Position numbers and translations under genes: made by a program. A stretch of DNA of 64,000 nt from Nitrosopumilus sp. (GTDB lineage Archaea; Thermoproteota; Nitrososphaeria; Nitrososphaerales; Nitrosopumilaceae). Shown here in pieces: positions 36,316-64,000 of this stretch. Position 1 is the first letter of the stretch; each line of letters starts with the position of its first letter. Where the stretch lies: positions 640,001-704,000 of the forward strand of contig OZ240211.1 of the NCBI GenBank assembly GCA_965197525.1, given 5' to 3'. The notes below the pieces were generated by a model. That model searched no databases. It was not told the origin of the DNA and worked only from the letters and a program-made list of their open reading frames with translations.

Positions 36316-36420
36316 TGGCGCCGGGAGGGAGATTTGAACTCCCGTTCCCTTGCGAGAACGCGCTTTATGGTACATTGCTGTTTTCCAGGCGCGCGCCCTA
36401 CCAGGCTAGGCGACCCCGGC
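36316..36420 (-). tRNA. tRNA-Ser(GGA) with 18-nt intron at 37/38, CCA encoded
   Basis: GCCGGGG/TCCCGGC acceptor, G73, anticodon arm CGCGC-CTGGAA[intron]A-GCGCG, long variable arm, GGGAG-TTCAAAT-CTCCC T arm. Confidence 0.93.
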
Positions 36421-54076: not shown

Positions 54077-56773
54077 TTAGAGGTTTGTCAGTTCATCTTT
54101 GATCTTTTGGTACAACAACTCGTCTTTTTCATTCGTTAATAATTCGTCGATGAATGTTTCAGGATTTCTCCTCCACTCAAGAACCTTTTGTAGACGTTCT
54201 TCAAATTTCGGATAACTAGCTCTTTTTCCTTCTTCTATTAGAGCCATGTCAAATCTACCTGTGTTGATTCCATCTCGTAGCGCTACAAAGATCACACACG
54301 TACTGATCTTTTCTTCAGGAATCTCTTCTGCAATCGAGAGCATTCTCTTGTATACTGCCAGCTGTCTTGTATGTTCTGATTTACGAGTTAGCTTTTTGTC
54401 CGTCTTGTAATCCACAATGAGATATCCTTGATCATGCTTGAATACTGCATCCATGTATCCTGTAAATAACAAGTTGTCATCATCCGAATAACTAGTCATT
54501 GAACCTAGAGGGATCTTTTGGTATTTCTCAGTAGCAATCAACTTCAAGCCAGGTAGATCCCCTCTTAGTCTATCAACTGCATCTAGTGCATTTTGTACCG
54601 CTTTTCTTACTTTATCGTCGTCATAGTCTTCAAGTCTTGTCTTGTTTGTAAAAACCTCCTGTATTGCTTTATGAACGCGACTTCCTAGCTTGGTTCCTGA
54701 AGAAGAGTGCGGCATATTGACTATGTTGTCTAGCATGAATTCGTACGCATCCGTCTTTATGCCAGAGTACGAGAGACGATCTATCTTTGCAAAGTAATCC
54801 TTGACATACTGTTTTAGCCACAAGTTTTTGTGTTGTAACAGTTCTTTTGCATCAGAATCCATGCCTTGAACAAACAACGAATATGCTTTTGATAGCTTTG
54901 TACTTGAATTCATTACTATACCAGCCGGCTCGTTGTTTGAACGATCATCAACCTCCATATCAGAAAAACCCTCTACGTGATAGTTTTGTTTAGAATTTTT
55001 ATTACCATCCACAATCACTACGAGTTTTTCCTTTGCCCTAGTAAATGCTACAAAGTCAACCCTCAACGATTCGTCTTCTACCTCATCTTTCACATCTATC
55101 TGACGCGATAACAAAATTGACTCCACAATGGTGTTTATAAAACTGGTCTTCTTTTTTGGGGTAACTGGAATGTATACTGCCACGTCAAACTCTCGTCCTT
55201 TTGCCTTGTGAACAGTGGTCAGAGTTATTTGAGAGTCACTACGGCGTTCCATTCTGGATTCTTCCCCGATGACGATAAAGTCAAGCAACCCCTCTAGTGT
55301 CGGCATTTCAAATGTCAGATATTCGTCAACTTCTTGTTTGAGTGATATCGCAGTTGTAAACCATTCAGCACCCTTAGAGACACATACTGGCAGTATGATA
55401 CAGTCAAACACCCTATCCATGTCTTCTCTCGTCAGTTCTGCACCTAGTTTGATACTGTCAGATGCGGCGGCGCCATCACGCCTTTTTGCATCATATTCCC
55501 TAGAAAACCCAAACGCTTCTTGGAGGGAATACCTAGAGAAGACAGTAAACGTTCCCCTAATTTTGTCTTCAATACTGTCTGAGAGTAATCCTTTGAGATA
55601 TGTTTGGATCTCTTCTTTTGCTCGTTGTGTCGTCACTTGGGATGATGTTGATGTGTATGTTATACTATTTGCATCCAACACCTTTGAAATCTCAATTATC
55701 TGCTTGTTTGTTCTCGTAATGATTCCAATTGTCTTGTTCGGATTTTCCTTGATCAGATCCAAAACTTTCATTGTACTGTTGTTACTTGATATGACTTGTG
55801 GCATATCTCCTGTCATATCTGATTGAAATCCCTCTAATTCCTCTTTGAATTTATCTCTGTTCTCAATATTTTCAAGAAAATATTCTGTTGCGTAATTTAA
55901 AATTTGTTGGGTACTGCGATAATTTTCAGTTAACTGTTTTTTTGTGCATGTCTTTTCAAATCTATCAAAGTTATTGACAGATCCCCCTTGAAATCCAAAG
56001 ATTGCCTGTTTTGAATCGCCTACCAAAAACAAGTTCTCTGCAACCATTTGTGCAATATCAGCCTCAATTTCATTCATATCCTGCATCTCATCGACTAGTA
56101 CATGCTCGAACTTGGCACCGCCAAACTCGTCTTTAAATACCAAAAGCATGTCCGAATAATCAACTGCATCTAATTTTGATGTTTCATATTCCTCGTACGC
56201 CTTGACAAAATATCTTAAAAACATCCTCATCTCTTGCATGGTATATGTAGATGATTTTTCATCAAAAATTTTCTCAATTATCCCTTCTGTTTTTTTGATA
56301 TTTATCTTGTCTGGCTTGATGCCCCAACTTTTGATGTATCTTATTGCATTCTCCGTCTTGGGCACGATCTCTGTAATTATGTAATTTTTCTCATAATTTA
56401 ACGCGTTGTTCTGCTCAAAACTCTTCAATATTGAAAATCTCAAGTTGTTATTCCCTACAATATCCCCTGAAATCTTGCCCTGGTCACGCAGATAGTTATA
56501 TGCAAAACTATGAAACGTGTGAATACTAATCTTCATAATATCCGCATTCAGAAGAAGTTTGTCTTTTGCATTCTTCATAATTGCATCAAACATCTCTTTT
56601 TTGGCCTTTTCAGTAAACGTGATACAGAGAATGTTTTCCGGACTAGTTCCATTCTCAAGCAGTTTGATTACTTTGTATGACAGTGTTGTGGTCTTTCCCG
56701 TCCCAGGGTTTGCCACCACTAGGGTGTTCTCTTTTGTATTGATGATGTCTTGTTGTTTTTTTGAAAATCCCAT
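54077..56773 (-). CDS. UvrD/REP SF1 helicase fused to C-terminal PD-(D/E)xK nuclease (AddA-like)
   Basis: ANPGTGKTT, VDEMQD, GDSKQAIFGF, ENYRS, TVHKAKGREF, VAFTRAKE; then GYMDAVF...IVDYKT...QLAVY. Confidence 0.88.
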   Translation of the reverse strand: MGFSKKQQDIINTKENTLVVANPGTGKTTTLSYKVIKLLENGTSPENILCITFTEKAKKEMFDAIMKNAKDKLLLNADIMKISIHTFHSFAYNYLRDQGKISGDIVGNNNLRFSILKSFEQNNALNYEKNYIITEIVPKTENAIRYIKSWGIKPDKINIKKTEGIIEKIFDEKSSTYTMQEMRMFLRYFVKAYEEYETSKLDAVDYSDMLLVFKDEFGGAKFEHVLVDEMQDMNEIEADIAQMVAENLFLVGDSKQAIFGFQGGSVNNFDRFEKTCTKKQLTENYRSTQQILNYATEYFLENIENRDKFKEELEGFQSDMTGDMPQVISSNNSTMKVLDLIKENPNKTIGIITRTNKQIIEISKVLDANSITYTSTSSQVTTQRAKEEIQTYLKGLLSDSIEDKIRGTFTVFSRYSLQEAFGFSREYDAKRRDGAAASDSIKLGAELTREDMDRVFDCIILPVCVSKGAEWFTTAISLKQEVDEYLTFEMPTLEGLLDFIVIGEESRMERRSDSQITLTTVHKAKGREFDVAVYIPVTPKKKTSFINTIVESILLSRQIDVKDEVEDESLRVDFVAFTRAKEKLVVIVDGNKNSKQNYHVEGFSDMEVDDRSNNEPAGIVMNSSTKLSKAYSLFVQGMDSDAKELLQHKNLWLKQYVKDYFAKIDRLSYSGIKTDAYEFMLDNIVNMPHSSSGTKLGSRVHKAIQEVFTNKTRLEDYDDDKVRKAVQNALDAVDRLRGDLPGLKLIATEKYQKIPLGSMTSYSDDDNLLFTGYMDAVFKHDQGYLIVDYKTDKKLTRKSEHTRQLAVYKRMLSIAEEIPEEKISTCVIFVALRDGINTGRFDMALIEEGKRASYPKFEERLQKVLEWRRNPETFIDELLTNEKDELLYQKIKDELTNL

Positions 56774-56959
56774 AATTATTTACACACTCTACTCCTTGGT
56801 TTTAATCTATACTACATGACAACTATCGCTTAGATTGCCACTCAATTATATTATTTGCCTGTATTGCAGTTATGAGTCATGGAAAGTGTGTGCTTGGCTG
56901 ATTGATACAAGTATTCAGTAATTCTCTTGCATGATCATGCCCAAATGATTACTCTTGTA

Positions 56960-57170
56960 GTATTCTACAGTAACGGACTGGCAACTTTACAGTAGGCAAT
57001 TCTTCATGGAAAGCATCGGTAGGGGATATCAGTCTCAACAGAATGTACCGGGAGTTTGGAAACCCTGGCATTCTAGTAAGAAAAAGAATGGCTGTTTTCT
57101 GCGACGGAGACTTTCGGTCCAATATGATGGCCGATTTCTTCTGCAAGCTGCTTGTACCTTGCCTCTTCAA
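56960..57170 (+). pseudogene. Possible Vsr (very short patch repair) endonuclease remnant
   Basis: Frame reading YREFGNPGILVRKRMAVFCDGDFR resembles Vsr PGKPDIVF...AVFxDGDFWH; frameshifted. Confidence 0.35.
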
Positions 57171-57219
57171 AGTTCAATAAAAAAATATATAGTTTAACAC
57201 CACTAGTACAATAGGGGTT

Positions 57220-57277
57220 TGCCGTCGCGCAGCTCTAGGGAAGCAGTCTTCCGCATCTGAGCGGACCTGCTTCCCGC
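57220..57277 (-). ncRNA. Structured RNA motif downstream of the DUF3800 gene
   Basis: 9-bp stem GGGAAGCAG/CTGCTTCCC with inner TCCGC/GCGGA hairpin; homologous copy at 13435-13493. Confidence 0.6.
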
Positions 57278-57300
57278 TATTTGTAGTATCACGTTTCATC

Positions 57301-58047
57301 TTAGCGTGAAGACGAGATCTCATTTATACCAACGCCATACAATCGGTTACCAGAACGATACATCTTTGAATTTAGTAACTTGAACCATTTTGCAAACATC
57401 GGATCCTTCTTGTAATGCTTGTGTATCACATACGCAATCATGTCTGCTAACTGGATCATATTCCACCTAAAGGATTCTACAAATATTGGATTCTCGATGA
57501 CATGACTGTCTCCCAGTCGATTATTCTTGCCTCTCTGCACCTGACTTGATATAAGGTTCTTGATCTCTGTGTCAGGATTCTTGTGACTAGAATCTATAAA
57601 GAACAGTCCATCGTTAATAGGAATCTGGTTACGTTCCAAAAAATTCTCAAATCTAATGACTAGTCGCCGCCAAGAATATTTCATAACAGCATGAGATCGC
57701 CTTTGCTTTAGCATGTCCTTGAAGACGATTACGTTGACTAGGACGATTTCTGACTTGCATGCGATATCAACAACCCTTGAAAATATCTCATCTTTCTTTG
57801 CGCGGTTTAGGTTTAGCTCTTTTTTTGCAAAAAACTCCCGATCATGCCAAATATCAGATGCGTGCAGTTCCCATTCATCTGAACGAAATTCTGGAAACAG
57901 ATCCTGTTTCATATCAACAAGGCTCTTTTCAACGGATCTCCAATCTTTCTCGTGAACCAGCACTCCACTCAAGATATACAAGCCGTTATCTGAACTACGA
58001 GATTTTATTGCTGTTTGTCCTGATTCATCCACATATAGAAAATACAT
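57301..58047 (-). CDS. DUF3800 family protein; start set at ATG 58047
   Basis: MYFLYVDESG, ELHASDI, FIDS, S...IQLADMIAY. Confidence 0.85.
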   Translation of the reverse strand: MYFLYVDESGQTAIKSRSSDNGLYILSGVLVHEKDWRSVEKSLVDMKQDLFPEFRSDEWELHASDIWHDREFFAKKELNLNRAKKDEIFSRVVDIACKSEIVLVNVIVFKDMLKQRRSHAVMKYSWRRLVIRFENFLERNQIPINDGLFFIDSSHKNPDTEIKNLISSQVQRGKNNRLGDSHVIENPIFVESFRWNMIQLADMIAYVIHKHYKKDPMFAKWFKLLNSKMYRSGNRLYGVGINEISSSR

Positions 58048-58193
58048 GATTATATCACATGACATGTAAATAAAAACCATGCATCTAGCTATGTACATGC
58101 ACCCAAAACCATACATAAAATTTTATCATATTGAATAAGGAATCATTTTTTTTTTTTTTGATTAAGAGATCTATATGGCCATCACAATCATCA

Positions 58194-58503: not shown

Positions 58504-58591
58504 ATTATATAAAGAAGTTGTCAATGGAATTGAAATTATTATATAAAGAAGTTGTCAATGGAATTGAAATTATTATATAAAGAAGTTGTCA
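58504..58591. repeat. 34-bp tandem repeat, 2 units plus 20 bp
   Basis: Unit ATTATATAAAGAAGTTGTCAATGGAATTGAAATT. Confidence 0.9.
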
Positions 58592-58792
58592 TATAGTGTG
58601 TCAATAGTGTAGAATAATCAAAGAAAGAGACATAAGAAATGTAAATCACTGGTGAGATTACCCAAAAAATATTGATAAAGATAAACATATTCAAAGTTGG
58701 AATGAAACACAACTCAAACATACTCCATGCATGTCTTTTGAGATAACTGAGAGATGACAAATGTTTATAACAATTTAAACATATAACTAAAC

Positions 58793-59961: not shown

Positions 59962-59968
59962 GGTTCTG

Positions 59969-61120
59969 TTAACTTGACGAGTGGTAATTCTTCCTGTTAA
60001 CTGTCGAGGGGTTGGATTTTGAGGCGTTCTGTATAATGGTTAGCCATTTGTTGTTACCCTTGATCTCAATCCCTGCTCTGTCTGCTGGAGTGTCACCGTC
60101 TAAACTCATGTGAGGTCTGATGTAATTGTGATATAATTTGATACCGTCTATTGCAGGCGAGTCATCTTTTTTGAGTCCTCGAAACACTTTCTCACGGTCT
60201 CGGAACTCACCGTTTAACCTCTCTTGGATATTGTTGTTTGCCACTTGGTTTTTGAAATGTACCTCTTTGATATGTTTGCTTGGTTTATGTAAGAAATTCT
60301 TCTGAGCAAACTCTTTTTTGAAAGCGTCATTATACGCTGGTAATCCATCCGTTACAAATACGCGGGGTGTCTTTTTTGCTACTGTTTTACCCATCTTTAA
60401 CAGACTTTGTGCATCATGCTTGAACTTGCTATCAGCTACTTCTTGAGCAATCCAAAAACGTGTCTCGTTGTCCATCATGGCAAACAAATACTTGCGATCA
60501 CCCTTTACTTTAAGCCATACCTCATCCGCATGCCACTTCTCGCCTACTTGTGGGGTTATTGTACTCAGATAATCATCCATAATCTTGATGTATTTTTTGA
60601 CCCATTTGTAAATAGCAACATGAGACATATTGACACCTTGTAATCTTAGAAATTTTTGTACTCCTCTCAGAGATTCACCTGTAAAGTACAACTGCATAGC
60701 TTGTGTAATCATATCAGGTGTGGCTCTCATTCCCTCAAATCCCAAATTTACTGAGAATTTCTTAGAGCATGATTTGCACTTGAATATCTGCAAGTCATAA
60801 TTCTTGTTGTGTCTAACTCCCCATTTGGACACGTCATTAGAACCGCAGAACTGACAAGATTTGACGTCAACAGTTTCAATAACATGTTTCTTTACTTCCT
60901 TGCGTATCTTCAAAGATATTTCTACGGCATGAATGTGTTTACAGCACACCTTACGGAACTGATGATCAGGACATGAGCAACTCCAGCCAAATTCAGTACC
61001 CACCACATCATATAGGGAATCACTGTTTTGGCTTTTGGCCTCGTAGTGTGTATCATTTACTCTCTTGATCTGATCCTGTTTCTCTACTATGGTTTGACCT
61101 CTGGTCTGTCTTGTGTTCAT
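59969..61120 (-). CDS. IS6-family DDE transposase with N-terminal SWIM finger and Zn ribbon
   Basis: CSCPD...CKH SWIM; CQFC...CKSC; WHADE, VTDGLPAY, NNIQERLN triad intact; stop inside the TIR. Confidence 0.9.
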   Translation of the reverse strand: MNTRQTRGQTIVEKQDQIKRVNDTHYEAKSQNSDSLYDVVGTEFGWSCSCPDHQFRKVCCKHIHAVEISLKIRKEVKKHVIETVDVKSCQFCGSNDVSKWGVRHNKNYDLQIFKCKSCSKKFSVNLGFEGMRATPDMITQAMQLYFTGESLRGVQKFLRLQGVNMSHVAIYKWVKKYIKIMDDYLSTITPQVGEKWHADEVWLKVKGDRKYLFAMMDNETRFWIAQEVADSKFKHDAQSLLKMGKTVAKKTPRVFVTDGLPAYNDAFKKEFAQKNFLHKPSKHIKEVHFKNQVANNNIQERLNGEFRDREKVFRGLKKDDSPAIDGIKLYHNYIRPHMSLDGDTPADRAGIEIKGNNKWLTIIQNASKSNPSTVNRKNYHSSS

Positions 61121-61160
61121 ATCGTTGACACCTCAAAAATTAATATAGAGTAAAAACAAG

Positions 61161-61261
61161 TGGTGAGTGTGGGATTTGAACCCACGATGTGCTCGTCACA
61201 CAATCGCCTTTCTGAGGCAATCGCTTCAGGGCGACACCTTACCATTCTAGATAAACTCACC
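61161..61261 (-). tRNA. Atypical tRNA: GAA anticodon after splicing a 14-nt BHB intron, long variable arm (Leu-like body)
   Basis: GGTGAGT/ACTCACC acceptor, A73, ATCT/AGGT D stem, TCGCC/GGCGA anticodon stem, BHB helix CTGA/TCAG with AGC and AAA bulges, TGTGT/GCACA variable stem, GTGGG-TTCAAAT-CCCAC T arm. Confidence 0.8.
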
Positions 61262-61271
61262 ATGTATAATC

Positions 61272-61314
61272 TAATCCTTAAGGATTATATTAATGTATGT
61301 TTTTTCCTTAAGGA
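61272..61314. promoter_or_regulatory. Twin palindromic operator in the divergent tRNA/AbrB promoter region
   Basis: TAATCCTTAAGGATTA (61272-61287, perfect 16 bp) and TCCTTAAGGA (61305-61314) flank an AT-rich TATA-like segment. Confidence 0.55.
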
Positions 61315-61353: not shown

Positions 61354-61524
61354 ATGGGACGATGGAAAAAAGATGAAACGGAATACACGGTAAATCTGAA
61401 CCATGACAAAAGACGGGGATGTATTGCAATAATACCAAAACCGATTTTGGAAAAGCTGTCGCAGCCTGACCAGATCATGTTCAAACTGTCAAAGCATGGA
61501 ATATTGGTAAAAGCAGGAGATTAA
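61354..61524 (+). CDS. Small AbrB/SpoVT-like DNA-binding protein (56 aa)
   Basis: Manual translation MGRWKKDETEYTVNLNHDKRRGCIAIIPKPILEKLSQPDQIMFKLSKHGILVKAGD; IPKPI..KL pattern. Confidence 0.6.
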   Translation: MGRWKKDETEYTVNLNHDKRRGCIAIIPKPILEKLSQPDQIMFKLSKHGILVKAGD

Positions 61525-61528
61525 CAGA

Positions 61529-63043
61529 ATGATCTCCAGCAGAGGCAAGTCTTCCTCAATCGGGGGGGGCAGCGCCTCAAACCAGCATCAAGCGGAATCA
61601 AAAACCGAACAATCTTCACAGCAGATAATCTGCCTGTTATGAGAGGTATGGAAGATGAAAGTGTAGATTTGATTTATCTTGATCCTCCGTTCAATTCTAA
61701 ACACAACTATGCTGCACCAATAGGGTCAAAGGCGGCAGGTGTCGAATTTAAGGACACATGGACACTTAGCGATGTGGATGTTGCATGGTGGGGTGAGATT
61801 GCAGAGATCAACGAATCCTTGTATTCGATTATAGGAACTGCTGGCAAAGTAGGAGGAAAATCTACAATGTCGTATCTGATATACATGGCAATTAGGATTT
61901 TGGAGATGCGCAGAATTCTAAAATCAACAGGTTCATTGTACCTGCATTGTGATGCCACTATGAATCATTATCTAAAACTAACATTAGATGCAATATTTGG
62001 TAGTTCGTGTTTCAAAAATGACATAACATGGAAACGACATTCATCCCACAATGATGGTAAAAAATACGGTAGGATTTCGGACTCTATCCTGTTTTATACA
62101 AAATCAAACAAGTATCGATGGAATAAAACACATATTCCATACACAGATGAATTTGTTAAAAAAACATTCAAACATAAAGATGAGCGTGGTAGATTTCAAC
62201 ATCAACCGTTAACAGCTGAAACAAAATCGGGCGGAGGATATGAATATACGTATCACGGACACAGTAGAATTTGGACACACCCTCAGGAATCTATGCTGAG
62301 ACTAGAAGAAGAAGGAAGGGTATATCTTCCTAAAAATAACGGCATACCGAGACAGAAATTTTATTTGAACGAATCGGAAGGAATGCCAATTCAGAATATA
62401 TGGATCGATATTCCCAAGATGTCAGGCAAGGAAAGATTAGGATATCCTACACAGAAACCATTGGCGTTGTTGGAGCGAATAATAGAATCAAGCAGTAGCA
62501 TAGGTGATATTGTGTTTGACCCATTCTGTGGTTGCGCTACAGCCTGTCTTGCAGCAGAGAAACAGGGTAGAAAATGGATAGGCTGTGACATATCTGAAAG
62601 AGCGTACTCGCTGATTGAACTTGCATCCACGTTATCATGATGTACGAGCAGGAAGTGACATATCTGAAAGAGCGTACTCGCTGATTGAACAGAGGCTTAG
62701 GGCAGATGCAGGAATTGCCAAATTCATTACAGGAGCTGGCGAAGTCATACATAGGACTGATATCCCACATAGAAAAGGCAGACGATCCAAGAACATCAAG
62801 CATACGTTATACGGAATCCAGCATGGGTACTGCAACGGTTGTAAATACCATTATCTATTCAAGGATTTGGAGGTAGATCACATCATACCAAAAGCAAAAG
62901 GCGGTCAGGATGATGACAAAAATCTTCAACTACTTTGTGGTAACTGCAACAGACGAAAAGGCGGAAAACTTACCATGACTGAACTTAATGCGGTGCTGGT
63001 TGCAGAGGGCATGAAGTTCGGTAAGGGGCGTTCTGGATCCTAG
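61529..63043 (+). pseudogene. Beta-class N6A/N4C DNA methyltransferase-HNH endonuclease fusion, interrupted twice
   Basis: DPPF and DPFCGCAT motifs; HNH DHIIPKAKGG...NLQLLCGNCN. Frame broken at G8 (61562-61569) and by a 70-bp duplication/insertion; repairing both gives one 481-aa ORF. Currently ORFs 61639-62640 and 62615-63043. Confidence 0.8.
62585..62690 (+). repeat. 36-bp direct repeat - 34-bp unique insert - 36-bp direct repeat inside the MTase-HNH gene
   Basis: GTGACATATCTGAAAGAGCGTACTCGCTGATTGAAC at 62585-62620 and 62655-62690; insert TTGCATCCACGTTATCATGATGTACGAGCAGGAA. Confidence 0.9.
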
Positions 63044-63100
63044 CTCCCGACACTTTCCAGCAAGAGTTAGATCCCGTCAAGTTAACAGAACCAAAAATTT

Positions 63101-63151
63101 ACCCCTCGACAGTTAACAGGAAGAATTACCACTCGTCAAGTTAACAGAACC
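63101..63151 (+). mobile_element. 51-bp remnant of the transposase-3' end of a second IS6 copy in opposite orientation
   Basis: Exact reverse complement of 59962-60012; 8 bp from the main element end. Confidence 0.85.
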
Positions 63152-63540: not shown

Positions 63541-63756
63541 TGTCATCGAATCAACTATAATCTATTCTTTATTGACACGTATGAAGATCAATCAGTAATC
63601 CGAGCTAGTTGTTATTTTAAAATGCTCGTATATTAGCAGAGTAAAAAGCAGTATTTTATCAGAGGGCGTTTGGTAATTTTATCATCTGTCAATTTTCATT
63701 ATGCTATCTGAACATATTATCAGAATCGTGTAGAGAGGACTATAAACAGCTTATAC

Positions 63757-63981
63757 ATTATATAAAGAAGTTGTCAATGAAATTGAAAGTATTATATAAA
63801 GAAGTTGTCAATGAAATTGAAAGTATTATATAAAGAAGTTGTCAATGAAATTGAAAGTATTATATAAAGAAGTTGTCAATGAAATTGAAAGTATTATATA
63901 AAGAAGTTGTCAATGAAATTGAAAGTATTATATAAAGAAGTTGTCAATGAAATTGAAAGTATTATATAAAGAAGTTGTCAA
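63757..63981. repeat. 34-bp perfect tandem repeat, 6 units plus 21 bp
   Basis: Unit ATTATATAAAGAAGTTGTCAATGAAATTGAAAGT; paralogous to 58504-58591. Confidence 0.95.
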
Positions 63982-64000
63982 TAGTGTAAAATGGTCAAAG

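Follow-up and report, generated by a model that had tools for sequence, protein, structure and literature searches.

The 64,000-nt stretch of DNA considered here (the window) covers positions 640,001 to 704,000 of contig OZ240211.1 (assembly GCA_965197525.1), from a Nitrosopumilus sp., a marine ammonia-oxidizing archaeon whose genome is a single contig of 2.21 Mb with 39.6% G+C. An IS6-family transposon of 3.19 kb in this window carries, upstream of its transposase, a class-II (long variable arm) tRNA gene with the Phe anticodon GAA, which is the subject of this analysis. Positions refer to the window unless they are given as genome positions.

The tRNA gene and the transposon that carries it

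The features of the tRNA gene are listed in the order in which they are transcribed, after the gene itself:

61161-61261, minus strand: class-II tRNA gene of 101 nt, or 87 nt with the insert spliced out, from Rfam, ARAGORN and stem segmentation
61225-61227, minus strand: anticodon GAA
61210-61223, minus strand: 14-nt intron-like insert CGAUUGCCUCAGAA between tRNA positions 37 and 38, from ARAGORN and direct reading
61186-61203, minus strand: variable arm, 18 nt
61161, minus strand: discriminator base A73

The gene matches the Rfam family RF00005 at 41.1 bits (E 2.8e-5; gathering score 29) over the full model, positions 1-71, from 61261 to 61161 on the minus strand. ARAGORN in intron mode reports tRNA-Phe(gaa) with i(37,14), and in default mode, without introns, no tRNA was called in the 64-kb window. 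Direct reading of the sequence gives a 7-bp acceptor stem (GGUGAGU/ACUCACC), a 4-bp D stem (AUCU/AGGU) with the 9-nt D-loop AGAAUGGUA, a 5-bp anticodon stem (UCGCC/GGCGA) with the loop CU-GAA-G[14 nt]A, and the T arm GUGGG-UUCAAAU-CCCAC. The variable region consists of U, a 5-bp stem (UGUGU/GCACA, one G.U pair), a 5-nt loop, a further U and C48; G15 and C48 are both present, and CCA is not encoded. The complete cloverleaf, GAA anticodon, 18-nt variable arm with a 5-bp stem, A73 and G15/C48 that a model had noticed earlier from the letters alone (the sequence-only reading) were thus all found. The gene also has the features of an elongator tRNA, namely stems of 7, 4, 5 and 5 bp, G18G19, the T-loop UUCAAAU and an external TATA promoter, and removal of the insert would leave the 7-nt loop CUGAAGA with U33 and a purine at 37.

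The insert had been described as a textbook bulge-helix-bulge (BHB) motif at 37/38. This holds for the position, for the central 4-bp helix (CUGA/UCAG) and for the 3-nt 3' bulge (AAA) adjoining the anticodon stem, which are canonical; the outer helix on that side is also present, but the helix outside the 5' bulge has just 1-2 bp. In sequence the insert resembles part of the 3' anticodon-stem/variable-arm segment, as if duplicated from it, and GCGAUUG occurs twice. The insert is conserved in three genomes, including the two with the closest homologues (G041 and G014, with 0 and 2 substitutions and the central helix untouched). The spliced 87-mer folds near the cloverleaf. As an internal control for class-II tRNAs of the host, tRNA-Ser(GGA) at 36319-36420 (minus strand) has an 18-nt intron at 37/38, 63% G+C and an encoded CCA, which indicates that intron splicing is in use.

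The transposon is delimited by the following features:

59962-60021: left terminal inverted repeat, overlapping the stop codon of the transposase gene
59969-61120, minus strand: IS6-family DDE transposase of 383 aa, extended at its N terminus by a SWIM/zinc-ribbon region
63037-63151: right terminal inverted repeat (63092-63151) and a preceding degenerate end copy (63037-63093)

The two 60-nt inverted repeats are 93% complementary, with 51 nt perfect, and enclose the transposase, the tRNA, a divergent open reading frame (ORF) of 56 aa, a DNA methyltransferase and an HNH nuclease. The terminal 18-mer occurs three times in the window (0.07 expected), at the two ends and at the one degenerate right end only, and the tRNA therefore lies inside the sole unit bounded by inverted repeats. 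An inner inverted repeat was looked for between the tRNA and the transposase, and none was found. The claim that the tRNA is transposon-borne was thereby borne out, as was its spacing: the 3' end of the tRNA (61161) and the transposase ATG (61120-61118), on the same strand, are exactly 40 nt apart. No 8-bp target-site duplication is visible, the flanks GCCGGACT and TCATACTG being different; IS6 elements often lack a target duplication after cointegrate resolution. The transposase scores 53 bits with Pfam DDE_Tnp_IS240 (cut-off 27), 25 bits with SWIM, and 120.6 bits with NCBIfam transpos_IS6, just below its cut-off of 125. It has 13 matches in the host genome, and matches were present in 74 of the 201 Nitrosopumilaceae genomes sampled.

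Body type, homologues and predicted amino-acid identity

In the host, G+C is 56-63% in the canonical tRNA-Phe(GAA) (genome 230215), in five tRNA-Leu with A73 and in four tRNA-Ser with G73; a tRNA-Leu(GAG) is present at genome 843415. In addition, there are seven long-arm tRNAs with a G+C content of 43-52%; their anticodons are UAA in three copies and CAG, AUC, UCU and GAA in one each, and only the GAA copy at 61161-61261 has A73. Its G+C content is 50%, compared with about 62% in host tRNAs. The host genome encodes one seryl-tRNA synthetase (SerRS) and one leucyl-tRNA synthetase (LeuRS), and no dedicated synthetase was found in it.

The body of the transposon tRNA had been called Leu-like, which its geometry contradicts. 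Host tRNA-Ser has a 4-bp D stem, a 9-nt D-loop (AGCYYGGUA) and a variable region made of one base, a 4-bp stem with a GNRA loop, one base and C48. In host tRNA-Leu the D stem is 3 bp long, the D-loop comprises 11 nt, and the arm reads UCUYUYAGGAGUUC, leaving two bases unpaired before C48. The transposon tRNA is Ser-like in both arms, having a 4-bp D stem, a 9-nt D-loop that ends in GGUA and one unpaired base 3' of the variable stem; the Ser-type geometry and the 9-nt D-loop AGNNNGGUA agreed with the tRNA-Ser sequences compared, four from the host and 12 from relatives. It shares its T arm with host tRNA-Leu. Sequence profiles give 19.5 bits for Ser and 13.6 bits for Leu, both low beside the 71.4 bits of a real host tRNA-Leu with the Leu profile and the 48 bits of a real tRNA-Ser. 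Since such profile hidden Markov model scores separate Ser and Leu weakly, the Ser-type call rests on geometry and on the G73 of the relatives. The transposon tRNA is not a recent copy of a host Ser or Leu gene, and "Ser-type class-II body" is the better description.

Searching with the module DNA and with a pattern turned up 14 copies of this tRNA subfamily, distributed over four genera and 12 of the 401 Nitrosopumilaceae genomes. GAA is present in four to five copies, GAU in six to seven (G370, G319, G388, two in G384, G063 and G059) and UAU in one (G351). The closest homologues, in G041 (93% identical) and G014 (91%), read GAA and have the same insert; G299 has GAA and no insert, and G080 has GAA in the 6-nt loop CUGAAA. 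Only one copy reads GAG, the distant and degenerate G033, which has A73 and mismatches in three stems. The sequence-only reading had offered, as a simpler alternative, a tRNA-Leu(GAG) with one G36A change and had named homologues that all read GAG as what would speak against the GAA reading. The anticodons of the homologues point the other way: GAA was inherited and is therefore no recent G36A slip from a Leu gene.

Among the 11 intact members there is 1 non-pair in 231 stem cells, all 11 have the 7/5 acceptor/T arrangement, and compensatory changes are found at six pairs (4-69, 5-68, 11-24, 29-41, 30-40 and 31-39), which is strong evidence that the cloverleaf is under selection. G73 is present in every copy except the one studied here and the degenerate G033, and A73 in this copy is thus derived. 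In four copies (L045 in G080, L195 in G063, L199 in G388 and L218 in G059) the anticodon loop has 6 nt or has C33 for U33 with the stems still perfect, as would be expected if decoding, not folding, were counter-selected in some hosts. Two metagenome scans and one viral-contig scan with the family pattern gave 0 matches, and a scan of genome contigs with a loose pattern, dominated by Streptomyces tRNAs, gave a single Nitrosopumilus metagenome-assembled genome with the same copy as in G319.

Class-II G73 tRNAs occupy the same position in four further loci of the small divergent protein; one is an additional GAU copy, and the others belong to a subfamily with GAG/CAG, which are Leu anticodons. 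The CAG/GAG subfamily was seen at genome C1:615040-615126, L214 1731-1816, L217 1336-1421 and L212 1337-1422. Its body is more Leu-like (in copy 615, Leu 27 bits and Ser 17 bits), yet it has G73, and it might read Leu codons as Ser.

The identity elements known from other tRNAs were compared with those of the transposon tRNA. It was reported that SerRS of the bacterial type and of archaea depends strongly on G73 and more weakly on G30-C40, that the LeuRS of H. volcanii treats G73 as an antideterminant and needs A73 together with the sequence-specific variable-arm bases A47c, G47d and U47h, and that the universal determinants of phenylalanyl-tRNA synthetase (PheRS) are G34, A35, A36 and A73, with G20 in addition in A. 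pernix (Giegé and Eriani, PMC9976931). The transposon tRNA departs from archaeal tRNA-Ser at three marks (it has A73, C30-G40 and GAA in place of G73, G30-C40 and a Ser anticodon). It has all four members of the universal tRNA-Phe set and lacks G20 and the short variable loop of tRNA-Phe (U20 and an 18-nt arm, compared with G20 and a 5-nt loop in host tRNA-Phe). For archaeal tRNA-Leu, A73 and the long variable arm are present, but not the anticodon, the D-arm or the sequence and geometry of the variable arm.

Judged by these elements, the G73 relatives would accept Ser and would decode Phe or Ile codons. In the present copy the predicted effect of G73 to A73 is that the main Ser determinant is lost, the LeuRS antideterminant is removed and the PheRS set is complete except for G20. 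Because of this change, the present copy most likely does not insert Ser; it would be charged with Phe, which would be harmless, or with Leu, or would be charged poorly. On a rough estimate of our own, Phe is a possible though doubtful outcome, poor or absent charging slightly more doubtful, Leu more doubtful again and Ser improbable.

Promoter, candidate repressor and interpretation

The sequence around the tRNA contains the following features:

61274-61314: tRNA promoter region, with the TATA box TTAATATA at 61286-61293 (minus strand), at -32 from the 5' end of the tRNA
61354-61524, plus strand: divergent protein of 56 aa, probably an AbrB/SpoVT-like dimeric repressor
61121-61160, minus strand: spacer between tRNA and transposase, with a T5 run (61152-61156), the TATA-like box TATATTAA (61140-61147) and GAGGUG (61129-61134)

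Two copies of the palindrome TCCTTAAGGA (61274-61285 and 61305-61314) stand on either side of the tRNA TATA box, and in homologous modules other palindromes occupy the same place and vary in step with the lineage of the small protein. In eight loci the 56-aa protein is a conserved neighbor of the tRNA, with 41-84% identity. With a profile of the protein, relatives in multiple copies were detected in 37 of 151 genomes; many lie 84-120 nt from the start of a transposase that has no intervening tRNA. In these basic, tRNA-less copies repeated palindromic boxes surround the TATA box of a leaderless transposase; the basic form (L228, L226, L220, L234, L235 and L219) consists of the transposase with a divergent small AbrB-like gene and 3-4 palindromic boxes that are lineage-specific. 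The pairing of the small protein with tRNA-less transposases and palindromic boxes indicates that it is probably the transposon's own regulator and a candidate repressor of the palindrome-flanked promoter. In the tRNA-bearing variants the tRNA would then occupy the regulated promoter of the transposon.

The Atlas neighbor cluster of the 56-aa protein is named AbrB/MazE/SpoVT at 0.90. An intertwined homodimer is predicted for it (0.62, with 0.00 for the best control; pLDDT 76-78; runs agreeing in at least 96% of contacts); of known pairs, 20 of 30 reach the mark applied, as does 1 of 23 single chains, and the pass may reflect resemblance to solved complexes, if such exist, and not independent evidence.

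Four other odd tRNAs in the host genome have a different arrangement, since the sequence upstream of each contains 9-13 nt complementary to its own variable arm, and two of them abut broken transposase copies, convergent with these and at their 3' end. In these sister modules the transposases are of the same family (43-46% identity); the tRNAs are of class II, have low G+C, G73 and non-Ser anticodons, and are each accompanied by a putative negative regulator. The sister modules combine a convergent tRNA with a putative small RNA regulator, whereas at 61161-61261 the tRNA is upstream of the transposase and the candidate regulator is a protein. At the latter locus there is no complementarity of at least 9 nt in the 740 nt upstream or in the 1260 nt downstream outside the transposase ORF, and RNAduplex (z -1.2 to +1.4) gave no antisense partner. 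An RNAduplex signal with z -4.9 at the 615 locus was set aside, as it lies within conserved coding sequence and looks like chance. In another genome (L024 1310-1500, G136) a long-arm tRNA with UGU (Thr) and A73 is convergent to a transposase, and the sequence downstream of it contains two stretches, of 13 nt and 10 nt, with exact complementarity to its variable arm and anticodon stem-loop.

With slightly less than even confidence, we favor the explanation that the locus is a repressor-gated missense tRNA of Ser type carried as cargo of an IS6-family transposon, and that the present copy was switched or disarmed by G73A. The proposed mechanism is as follows. The family combines Ser-type bodies (G73, the 9-nt D-loop and the Ser variable-arm geometry) with anticodons for hydrophobic NUN codons (GAA for Phe, GAU and UAU for Ile). 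SerRS does not read the anticodon, and the ancestral form would therefore insert Ser at Phe or Ile codons. The tRNA would be placed on the transposon's own promoter, whose TATA box is flanked by putative palindromic operators, and because the divergent dimeric AbrB-like protein probably represses this promoter, the output of the tRNA would be gated together with that of the transposase. The tRNA would then be a conditionally expressed mistranslator, harmful or stress-inducing, that serves the element. In the sister modules an antisense small RNA would take the place of the repressor. Two different negative regulators being attached to the same kind of tRNA in the same transposon family is the main reason why these tRNAs are read as harmful when unrestrained. 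In the present copy G73A would end Ser charging and favor Phe or Leu.

Several points weigh against this explanation. A purely transcriptional repressor alone gives no post-segregational killing. The 56-aa protein has no family match in Pfam, PDB or NCBIfam, and none in PADLOC; its monomer model from AF2 is poor (pLDDT 65, order strand-strand-strand-helix-strand-strand), and Foldseek with this model gave no match. The profiles favor a Ser over a Leu body weakly, all host tRNA-Ser have G30-C40 where the transposon tRNA has C30-G40, and the identity rules are drawn from archaea other than Nitrososphaerota. The outer BHB helix of the insert is weak, and the minimum free energy fold of the 101-nt precursor (-40.6 kcal/mol) is not the cloverleaf with BHB (-32.1) and is built on a 10-bp helix between the two quasi-palindromic GCGAUUG copies. 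Finally, several copies have lesions (6-nt loops in G080 and G063, C33 in G388 and G059, and truncations), which fit either toxicity or plain decay.

A wider form of the proposal, which we consider unlikely as a whole, is that IS6-type archaeal transposons carry missense tRNAs with Ser-identity bodies and Phe, Ile, Leu or other anticodons, gated by a repressor or an antisense RNA, and that derepression would set off mistranslation throughout the proteome, serving as a weapon of a selfish, addictive or abortive-infection kind, with the present locus as a natural G73 to A73 identity switch that re-assigns or disarms the tRNA. A recoding need of the transposon's own transposase was considered and rejected: among 36 homologues, the columns aligned with the 18 Phe positions of the transposase are all of F/Y type or variable, and Phe stands in none of the conserved Ser or Leu columns.

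Among the alternatives, a neutralized copy fares best, although it is improbable: GAA together with A73 would be charged by PheRS or remain uncharged, and the result would be a surplus tRNA-Phe that does no harm, or an inert passenger, of no current use to the cell or the transposon. This copy has all four universal PheRS determinants, A73 is derived and unique among intact copies, other copies have disabling lesions, and the host has its canonical tRNA-Phe(GAA). On the other hand, the four stems, U33, the purine at 37, the T-loop and the promoter are all intact; the A. pernix enzyme requires G20 where this tRNA has U20, and PheRS might not accept a long variable arm.

Still less probable is a Leu-inserting missense tRNA, in which A73 and the long arm would make a LeuRS substrate and UUU/UUC would be read as Leu, as the sequence-only reading had proposed. 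A73 and a large variable region are known archaeal Leu determinants, with G73 as antideterminant (PMC9976931), and a precedent exists in the nematode nev-tRNAs, described as class-II tRNAs with Gly/Ile anticodons that are charged with Leu (PMC3333845). However, the H. volcanii LeuRS reads the variable-arm bases A47c, G47d and U47h, the host Leu arm and the Leu D-arm are absent from the transposon tRNA, and its Leu profile score of 13.6 bits compares with 71 for host tRNA-Leu.

Improbable as well is a cis-acting RNA, in which the tRNA fold would be an insulator, a terminator or an RNase P/Z signal that sets the 5' end of the transposase mRNA. In at least six loci the tRNA lies at a constant place between regulated promoter and transposase, and the basic copies are leaderless, while the tRNA-bearing ones have GAGGUG in the spacer. 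Against this, the same TATA-like box and GAGGUG are found upstream of tRNA-less transposases (one 39-nt match at 95%), and a T5 run follows the tRNA. As this block also precedes tRNA-less transposases, tRNA processing is not needed for the transposase mRNA; the earlier suggestion that it shapes this mRNA is thus not required, the spacer having signals of its own, although co-transcription may occur. Moreover, the tRNA of the sister modules is convergent at the 3' end of the transposase, and a cis-acting fold has no need for canonical 7-nt loops with U33 or for anticodons that shift by single steps within NAN.

A decaying pseudogene or hitch-hiking remnant without a selected role is very improbable. 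The low G+C (50%, with about 62% in host tRNAs), the competing fold of the precursor and the degenerate relatives would fit it, but the single non-pair in 231 stem cells, the six compensated pairs across four genera and the conserved promoter and position would not.

Least credible of all is a tRNA-Leu(GAG) with a recent G36A change, or a decoy against anticodon nucleases: the degenerate G033 has GAG with A73, and the element has restriction-modification genes and lies near defense-like genes, but the closest homologues read GAA, no intact one reads GAG, the host already has tRNA-Leu(GAG), the element contains no nuclease partner, and the family pattern has 0 matches in viral contigs.

Natural mistranslating tRNAs are known from a few bacteria (allo-tRNAs and tRNA-ProX) and from nematodes. 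To our knowledge, there is no known case of such a tRNA under the repressor of a mobile element itself. In the literature searched, no publication combining Nitrosopumilus, tRNA and variable arm, no published description of the element's tRNA, and no report of deliberate mistranslation by a natural tRNA in archaea was found; a 2024 review of tRNA-driven mistranslation mentions archaea solely in naming EF1A.

The nearest known kinds are the allo-tRNAs and the nev-tRNAs. Allo-tRNAs of soil bacteria are long-arm, Ser-type tRNAs with non-Ser anticodons, UAU being the commonest; they adjoin toxin-antitoxin genes and transposon-related ORFs. Active missense or nonsense suppressors are found among them, as are many inactive or toxic ones, and a five-stem structure is possible for some (Mukai et al. 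2017, PMC5389517). The transposon tRNA resembles them in the Ser-type long-arm body, the non-Ser anticodon and the setting among transposon genes. Allo-tRNAs are bacterial and have an 8/4 or 9/3 acceptor/T arrangement, whereas the transposon tRNA is archaeal with the canonical 7/5, lies within a defined IS6-family element on a putatively repressor-controlled promoter, and has a BHB-like insert and A73. The nev-tRNAs of nematodes are likewise class-II tRNAs with an anticodon that is neither Leu nor Ser (Gly CCC, Ile UAU), and their charging follows the class-II rule and not the anticodon; they differ in being eukaryotic, chromosomal and not transposon cargo, in being Leu-charged and in having no dedicated regulator known (Hamashima et al. 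2012, PMC3333845).

The element itself resembles IS6-family elements (IS26, ISPfu and similar) in its IS240/IS6-type DDE transposase, its terminal inverted repeats and the transposase stop codon within the end repeat. It differs in its length of 3.19 kb with five passenger features in a single pair of inverted repeats, a typical IS6 element having about 0.8 kb and one gene. According to a survey of mobile elements in thaumarchaea, no composite transposons with passenger genes had been detected in archaea (PMC6563490), and the present element, as a cargo-carrying transposon with a single transposase, would represent a class reported unseen there.

If the tRNAs are active, globally abundant marine nitrifiers carry mobile genes able to rewrite codon meaning on demand, which bears on translation fidelity, on the conflict between transposon and host and on the evolution of tRNA identity. 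A single discriminator change is predicted to separate Ser, Leu and Phe identity on one body, and class-II 7/5 scaffolds with freely changing anticodons may be of use for genetic-code engineering in archaea.

Cargo and surroundings of the transposon

The remaining cargo of the element is a pair of restriction-modification genes:

61639-63043, plus strand: N6/N4 DNA methyltransferase (61639-62640) and HNH endonuclease (62615-63043), from Pfam and from PADLOC (MTase_II/REase_II)

In a paralogous element (genome 920403-921809) methyltransferase and HNH form a single 468-aa fusion. Here a 36-nt direct repeat (62585-62620 and 62655-62690, 100% identical) separates the two ORFs, and the restriction-modification gene was probably disrupted in this copy. 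In the paralogous element about 50 tandem copies of GGTTCTT, with an ORF reading NQEPRTK repeats, are present at genome C1:921855-922226 (L007). This array sits between the methyltransferase and the transposase, in the slot that is occupied here by the small protein and the tRNA.

Arrays of the 34-nt tandem unit ATTATATAAAGAAGTTGTCAATGGAATTGAAATT flank the transposon at 58504-58727 and 63754-64000, in direct orientation and with 88-96% identity between the arrays. To the left (54077-58116) are an 898-aa fusion of UvrD helicase and PD-(D/E)XK nuclease, with PADLOC matches to GajB-like and DRT helicase proteins, and a DUF3800 protein, which suggests a defense-island setting. For three homologous loci, stretches of about 3 kb were searched for terminal repeats, and none was found within them. 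In the host genome, the 51-nt transposon end (59962-60012) recurs at about nine other sites with 77-86% identity (e.g. 781000, 917330, 1112550, 1587590 and 1832310), and these scattered copies may be the ends of related elements or solo ends resembling those of miniature inverted-repeat transposable elements (MITE-like).

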